NCBI GenBank assembly: GCA_021149145.1
Contig: GCA_021149145.1_4322.1
Reading direction: 5' to 3' (one strand)
DNA length: 34,803 nt
Origin: a phage
Positions 34,208-34,438 of the stretch are shown here, in pieces (position 1 is the first letter of the stretch; every line of letters starts with the position of its first letter). A model generated the notes under the pieces. It was given only the letters and a program-made list of their open reading frames with translations, was not told where the DNA came from and did not search any database. Position numbers and translations under genes: made by a program.

Positions 34208-34438
34208 ATGACTAACTTAATCAAACTTTCGATCATCGCAGCAGCAGCAATCATGATTGTAGGTTGTTCATCTGGTCATCGTCCGGATGGATGGTGCGCA
34301 ACGCAAGCAAACGGCGTTTGCGTAGCTAAGTGGAAAAGTGGTGTGGTTGTACCAGCTGGTGAAGTTGATGTGCGCTACGATGGAATCAAAGGTCATGGTG
34401 GCTCAGTTCGTGACTATGGCTCTAAGGAGTGGAATTAA
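34208..34438 (+). CDS. Small lipoprotein (76 aa); candidate superinfection-exclusion protein
   Basis: Signal peptide with lipobox IVGCSS, then a short Cys-containing mature domain; own promoter. Confidence 0.55.

Follow-up and report, generated by a model that had tools for sequence, protein, structure and literature searches.

An Rtp45-type lipoprotein gene overlapping an RBP gene in a small siphophage: a probable superinfection-exclusion factor directed at LptD

A short open reading frame near one end of the phage DNA analysed here (contig GCA_021149145.1_4322.1, 34,803 nucleotides, hereafter the window) encodes, judging by its sequence, an orthologue of Rtp45, the lipoprotein of coliphage Rtp. 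We regard it as probable (roughly 0.88 for the pathway as a whole) that this protein acts in superinfection exclusion, as the Rtp45 orthologue of the LptD-targeting small siphophages (Drexlerviridae, Rtp group). The window protein and Rtp45, both of 76 aa, align without gaps and are identical at 70 of 76 positions (92%), and chain D of PDB 9RPS ('Phage lipoprotein') matches the window protein over its full length with E=1.8e-44. As an unremarkable member of a Pfam-curated family for which a receptor complex has been solved, the gene is already known; it adds one sequence to that family and matters little by itself.

The coordinates of the gene and of the features discussed below are collected in Table 1. 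The lipoprotein signal was checked with a re-implementation of the PROSITE pattern PS51257. Residues 10-20 fit the PS51257-type pattern and a lysine (K6) lies in the n-region (first 7 residues); a hydrophobic core follows, in which the six positions before M-I-V-G are uncharged, and the lipobox reads IVG followed by C20. The predicted mature protein, CSSGH...KEWN, comprises 57 aa (6.03 kDa) and holds further cysteines at positions 30 and 38. An earlier reading of this DNA from its letters alone (the sequence-only reading) had claimed a 76-aa frame with a clear lipoprotein signal and a short, cysteine-containing mature domain, and both the extent of the frame and its fit to PS51257 agree with that description, as do the length of the mature part and its Cys30 and Cys38. 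Positions +2 and +3 of the mature protein are Ser-Ser, and Asp+2 is absent. According to the established '+2 rule', Asp+2 is an inner-membrane retention signal; the Ser-Ser pair therefore provides no such signal, and lipidation followed by sorting to the outer membrane is predicted. A chance open reading frame is disfavoured by tblastn matches to the lipoprotein in 286 phage records.

Table 1. Positions in the window of the lipoprotein gene, its signals and the other genes considered in the text.
Feature	Positions	Strand	Remarks
Rtp45-type lipoprotein gene	34208..34438	+	ATG start, 76 codons plus stop
Shine-Dalgarno AAGGA	34195-34199	+	8 nt 5' of lipoprotein ATG; from sequence
Lipoprotein signal peptide	34208-34264	+	
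Lipidated Cys20 codon (predicted)	34265-34267	+	
Mature lipoprotein part	34265-34435	+	
Lipoprotein Cys30 codon	34295-34297	+	
Lipoprotein Cys38 codon	34319-34321	+	
22-nt promoter-associated motif AATAGCACGAATAGATAAAGAC	34122-34143	+	Half-degenerate TAGCA-N5-TGCTA-type palindrome
Sigma-70-like core	34139..34166	+	Weak -35 AAGACA 34139-34144, 16-nt spacer, -10 TATCAT 34161-34166
Conserved leader box ACTCCATTGAAACGAAA	34168..34184	+	4 copies vs 0.19 expected; subset of motif promoters
Second promoter motif copy, 5' of methyltransferase gene	33374..33395	+	
Dcm-like C5-cytosine methyltransferase gene	33450..34139	+	phrog_757 E=5.5e-84; JeanPiccard annotation
Rtp44-type receptor-binding protein (RBP) gene (DUF6453)	34438..34803	+	First 122 codons, runs to window end
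Rtp52-like helix-turn-helix regulator	26055..26528	+	85% identical to Rtp52; phrog_2856 transcriptional regulator E=4e-81
Holin (lysis cassette)	18234-18497	-	
Endolysin (lysis cassette)	17752-18234	-	
Rz-like spanin (lysis cassette)	17369-17752	-	

Membership in the Rtp45 family is borne out by profile and sequence comparison. The Pfam profile PF24052 (Phage_lipoprotein) matches residues 1-75 along profile positions 1-80 of 80 with 125.2 bits against a cut-off of 27 bits, phrog_4281 is matched at E=8e-32, and a database search with the lipoprotein returned 50 protein clusters, every one of which carries PF24052. PADLOC gave no match for the lipoprotein, and NCBIfam no meaningful one. The lipobox cysteine (Cys20) and the Cys30/Cys38 pair hold the same numbers as in Rtp45 (UniProt Q333D9), and an alignment of 18 members shows no variation at G19, C20, C30 or C38, nor in the P-x-G-W-C block. 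All six substitutions that separate the window protein from Rtp45 (M17I, P24H, S35N, N44S, S63H and S64G) are at positions where the family itself varies. Between the window gene and rtp45, dS is 0.59 and dN 0.04, and the resulting dN/dS of 0.07 indicates that the gene is under strong purifying selection.

Rtp45 is said to have been first proposed as a Cor/Llp-like lipoprotein by Wietzorrek and colleagues in 2006. Subsequently, AugustePiccard and JeanPiccard were shown genetically to need LptD, the allelic 'RBP loci' 3' of gpJ in small siphophages were found to match the receptor, and LptD was predicted as the Rtp receptor from rtp44/rtp45 (Maffei et al. 2021, PMC8594841). For phages that target LptD, Rtp among them, exclusion lipoproteins were considered probable, their mechanism being unknown at the time (van den Berg et al. 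2022, PMC9586334). A cryo-EM structure of Rtp45 in complex with Shigella LptDE(M) (PDB 9RPS) has since revealed that the lipoprotein (~6 kDa) attaches to the periplasmic face of LptD close to strands 5-8, sandwiched between LptE and LptM, through an interface of almost 1,000 Å² that includes a beta-sheet formed from Rtp45 residues 30-35 (Dunbar et al. 2025, PMC12685063). In this complex, Cys30 and Cys38 form a disulfide, a hairpin of Rtp45 runs up the lumen of the LptD barrel, and extracellular loop 4 of LptD, which is bound in its closed state, is pushed outward by up to 20 Å, an arrangement sterically incompatible with RBP binding (PMC12685063); the published view that RBP binding would thereby be abolished was deduced structurally, for the RBP of another phage, Oekolampad, which is 33% identical to Rtp44. 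AlphaFold3 models of Rtp45 and of its complex were reported to be wrong by the authors of 9RPS (PMC12685063).

From these data the following pathway can be proposed for the window phage. A motif promoter specific to the phage would drive the lipoprotein gene and the RBP gene behind it as one transcript. The precursor would be exported by Sec, lipidated on Cys20 and cleaved by signal peptidase II, and because of the serine at +2 Lol would deliver the lipoprotein to the inner leaflet of the outer membrane. There, the 57-aa mature protein, stapled by a Cys30-Cys38 disulfide, would attach to LptD at the periplasmic rim of the barrel, between LptE and LptM, and send its beta-hairpin up the lumen, so that extracellular loop 4 would be displaced by up to about 20 Å and its return blocked. 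The Rtp44-type RBP of this phage and of its LptD-using relatives would then be unable to dock, with the outcome that the infected cell would be shielded from secondary infection and the progeny spared wasteful adsorption to the debris of lysed cells. Binding to LptD and the conformational effect on it have been demonstrated for Rtp45 and may be extended by analogy to the window orthologue; by the same analogy an exclusion phenotype of the window lipoprotein may be expected. In the literature searched, including the main text of PMC12685063, we found no in vivo exclusion or plating assay for Rtp45 or any other family member, and since a loss-of-plating phenotype is not reported in that main text, exclusion is argued here from structure, synteny and analogy with T5 Llp. 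The idea of a small outer-membrane lipoprotein obstructing the receptor used by its own phage had already been put forward in the sequence-only reading, and this proposal is supported by the 92% identity to Rtp45, by 9RPS and by the overlapping Rtp44-type RBP gene; that reading named neither LptD as the receptor nor the family, however, and overlooked the RBP gene as a second gene behind the promoter.

The genomic setting of the lipoprotein gene is that of the Rtp group. Its stop codon is overlapped by one base by the ATG of the RBP gene (TAATG), and the 122 aa of the RBP that lie within the window match PF20051 (DUF6453; E=3e-35) and the Oekolampad RBP (9RPT_C; E=6e-5) and are 75% identical to Rtp44, this N-terminal part being more diverged from its Rtp counterpart than the lipoprotein (92%). 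The same one-base overlap joins rtp45 to the Rtp44-type RBP gene in Rtp, where rtp45 ('putative phage lipoprotein') is followed by rtp44 and the two are convergent with the lambda-J-like rtp43, and the layout in JeanPiccard is identical. Rtp and JeanPiccard share this arrangement, in which the lipoprotein gene overlaps by one base with the RBP gene behind it and both are convergent with gpJ, with two other phages, the Dhillonvirus HK578 and the temperate mEp021; the convergence with gpJ is a feature seen in these relatives, the window ending at 34803, before gpJ. The DNA around the gene matches that of Rtp-group coliphages, which are T1-like (Drexlerviridae, Braunvirinae); over 1.4 kb its identity is 82-83% to JeanPiccard, BEK2/3 and AugustePiccard and 78.5% to Rtp itself. 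The Rtp45-type lipoprotein lets the terminal receptor of the window phage be predicted as LptD, the receptor needed by JeanPiccard and AugustePiccard, whose module is the closest. One difference from Rtp is a Dcm-like methyltransferase gene inserted just 5' of the lipoprotein gene, between the latter and a divergent intergenic region, a place where the Rtp annotation has none.

Upstream of the lipoprotein gene lies one copy of a motif with the consensus AATAGCACnAATTGCTAAAGAC, a TAGCA-N5-TGCTA palindrome plus AAAGAC, of which the window contains 11 copies (at 7353, 11177, 13765, 14578, 15358, 18805, 22386, 24616, 31722, 33374 and 34122) against 0.01 expected from shuffles. Without exception, these 11 copies are followed after 16-18 nt by a TAtaaT-like hexamer and then by a Shine-Dalgarno sequence and ATG in the same orientation, and the genes behind them include two helicases, an Erf-like recombinase, a virion protein, the methyltransferase and the lipoprotein. 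The motif block is conserved, together with the leader box, in Rtp (5' of rtp45) and in JeanPiccard (5' of bas02_0025); the arrangement differs from that of Rtp in that the first 18 nt of the window motif lie inside the 3' end of the inserted methyltransferase gene (stop codon 34137-34139). Transcription would, from the position of the sigma-70-like core, start near 34173. A generic sigma-70 scan gives this promoter a match of 9/12 and finds 4 matches in the region versus 6.2 in shuffles, i.e. chance level, so that it is the repetition of the motif, with its constant geometry, and not a consensus score that supports the promoter. A generic terminator scan of the lipoprotein region was likewise at chance level, and no stable RNA fold was found in the lipoprotein leader (z = 0.24).

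The promoter is not private to the lipoprotein. Because the RBP gene starts at 34438, inside the lipoprotein stop codon, the two form a two-gene unit, and the putative motif promoter at 34122-34143 probably serves the pair. The terminator scan found no terminator-like site on the + strand between the motif copy at 33374-33395 and position 34208, and read-through from the methyltransferase promoter into the lipoprotein gene is hence possible as well. What had been described earlier as the lipoprotein's own motif-type promoter stands as far as the motif is concerned, which is real (11 copies, fixed geometry), and has to be revised as to the unit, which consists of the lipoprotein plus the RBP. 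The Rtp52-like helix-turn-helix regulator is a plausible candidate for the binder of the palindromic motif. About ten inverted repeats 5' of Rtp genes were reportedly described as Rtp52 sites by Wietzorrek and colleagues in 2006. Taken together, the genes behind the eleven copies would make up a phage regulon for replication and recombination that also takes in a virion protein gene and the receptor module.

Translational coupling of the lipoprotein and RBP genes could also be expected of an assembly factor or chaperone for the RBP, and the TAATG overlap and the shared promoter are kept in relatives. Virion assembly, however, takes place in the cytoplasm, and the lipoprotein signal directs the product away from it, to the periplasm or outer membrane; moreover, the homologue has been seen on LptDE and not on the RBP (PMC12685063). 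On account of the signal and of the homologue bound to LptDE we reject a chaperone role, which we consider very improbable.

Exclusion as the preferred function of the window lipoprotein invites comparison with the better known exclusion lipoproteins, which the sequence-only reading had recommended; Rtp45 proves to be the close match, while Llp and Cor are alike in function and are not sequence relatives. Like Rtp45, T5 Llp (PDB 8A60 chain B, 7QJF) is a lipoprotein of the outer membrane that faces the periplasm, is small (about 60 aa when mature) and contains an internal disulfide; its gene adjoins the RBP gene, and the protein binds its receptor periplasmically and alters the extracellular loops (PMC9586334, PMC12685063). 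The targets differ, however, that of Llp being the TonB-dependent transporter FhuA and that of Rtp45 being LptD, and so does the mode of action, which is long-range allostery in Llp and physical displacement of loop EL4 by the lumen-inserted hairpin in Rtp45 (PMC12685063). BLASTP yielded no alignment between the window lipoprotein and Llp at E<=100, and the family profile did not recover 8A60_B or 7QJF_A from PDB at E<=10, although Llp chains were present in the searched set. The Cor lipoproteins (T1, phi80, N15, HK022; PHROG 1119) are also directed at FhuA, a receptor different from LptD, and share the Drexlerviridae neighbourhood 3' of gpJ as well as general role and size (PMC13164509); PHROG 1119 matches the window lipoprotein only marginally (E=0.019), over residues 6-34, which are mostly signal peptide. 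Membership in the Llp or Cor family was therefore rejected, sequence or profile homology over the mature domain not having been found.

The other common kind of small phage lipoprotein is the outer-membrane spanin, and an Rz1-like role in the lysis system is superficially suggested by the size, lipobox and cysteines of the window protein. Nevertheless, the protein matches no spanin family and is not proline-rich, and no i-spanin gene embeds or adjoins its gene. As a complete lysis cassette with an Rz-like spanin (17369-18497) lies elsewhere, on the minus strand and 16 kb from the lipoprotein gene, we dismiss this reading, the least credible of those considered here.

Not all members of the family stand beside an RBP gene. 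Among Klebsiella phages, a Webervirus member is found in PWKp17 (2134-2361 of the compared stretch) and in about 50 other records; it is ~62% identical to the window protein over the mature part and lies between endonuclease and Dam methyltransferase genes, with no RBP gene adjacent. Rtp45-family lipoproteins are also encoded by phiEco32-like podophages (Gordonclarkvirinae): phi32_106 of phiEco32 (3926-4207 of the compared stretch) has the lipobox LTGC and the conserved RPDGWCA..GVCV and shares 43% identity with the window protein, and it is placed among small early ORFs, adjoining a tRNA-Arg gene, again with no RBP gene adjacent. In the BASEL follow-up paper O-antigen and LPS core are discussed as receptors for the phiEco32-like group, and LptD is not mentioned. 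The phiEco32-like phages may use LptD themselves, or they may exclude competitors that depend on it. The orphan members in Webervirus and in the phiEco32-like podophages indicate that pairing with a cognate RBP is not universal.

These orphans, occurring in Klebsiella siphophages and phiEco32-like podophages, bear on a further explanation, in which binding to LptDE is real and its main purpose is interference with LPS export or outer-membrane biogenesis, as part of host takeover or as a help in lysis, exclusion being a side effect. The structure is in keeping with it in so far as the Rtp45 hairpin protrudes through the LptD lumen and the closed state is bound (PMC12685063). On the other hand, the tight pairing with an LptD-specific RBP gene in four phage groups is what is expected of a cognate receptor blocker, and co-overexpression of Rtp45 and LptDE in E. 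coli was tolerated, allowed the complex to be purified and was not reported to be toxic (PMC12685063), so that we judge this explanation improbable and retain receptor blocking as the main role of the window lipoprotein. Slightly less doubtful, and still unlikely, is a weaker form of the idea, namely that the lipoprotein, besides excluding other phages, throttles LPS export during infection by holding LptD closed with its lumen-threaded hairpin, and that the orphan members serve in this way or as weapons against LptD-dependent competitors. If this were true, the family would amount to a collection of LptDE inhibitors provided by nature. The wider Rtp45 family is of practical interest because LptD is both essential and a target for drugs: a natural 6-kDa protein that holds LptD locked in a single conformation offers a template for inhibitors. 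Exclusion lipoproteins also bear on how phage cocktails are designed, as two LptD-dependent phages would interfere with each other.

Several further observations concern the window as a whole. The phage backbone (window positions 10000-34803) is closest to Escherichia phages ES and AN_ECEAS, with 92% nucleotide identity over 84% of that region, whereas the methyltransferase–lipoprotein–RBP module (33400-34803) is closest to JeanPiccard, BEK2 and Rtp and is matched by ES/AN_ECEAS over only a quarter, at 80%. This discordance points to a module swap by horizontal exchange, as has been described for RBP loci (PMC8594841). Two records named as Campylobacter phages, MG065688.1 and MG065667.1 ('Campylobacter phage A110b/A127'), contain sequence 83% identical to the coliphage module, and their host label looks doubtful.

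An AT-rich block is common to the intergenic stretches 13440-13530 and 33230-33325 (also 13246-13298 and 33029-33081). The shared part covers 55 nt at 91% identity (AGTAAAAGGTTGATATATATAGATATTAT..ATGTAAC..GCGTAA, with a AATAATAATAATAA run 5' of the block), and one of its copies lies in the divergent region just 5' of the methyltransferase, lipoprotein and RBP genes; its role could be that of a strong early promoter or of an origin-like element. The short ORF at 26529-26762 (77 aa), which lies between the genes for the regulator and the primase, matches the C-terminal part of HNH endonucleases only (phrog_99, positions 110-170 of 383) and is probably the remnant of a homing endonuclease. Finally, GC-rich hairpins of the type AAAAAGCCCC-loop-GGGGCTT are situated at the ends of gene clusters (6895-6925, 17346-17376 and 30509-30539; also 3223-3250 and 27972-27999), and resemble intrinsic terminators of one family, some of them bidirectional.
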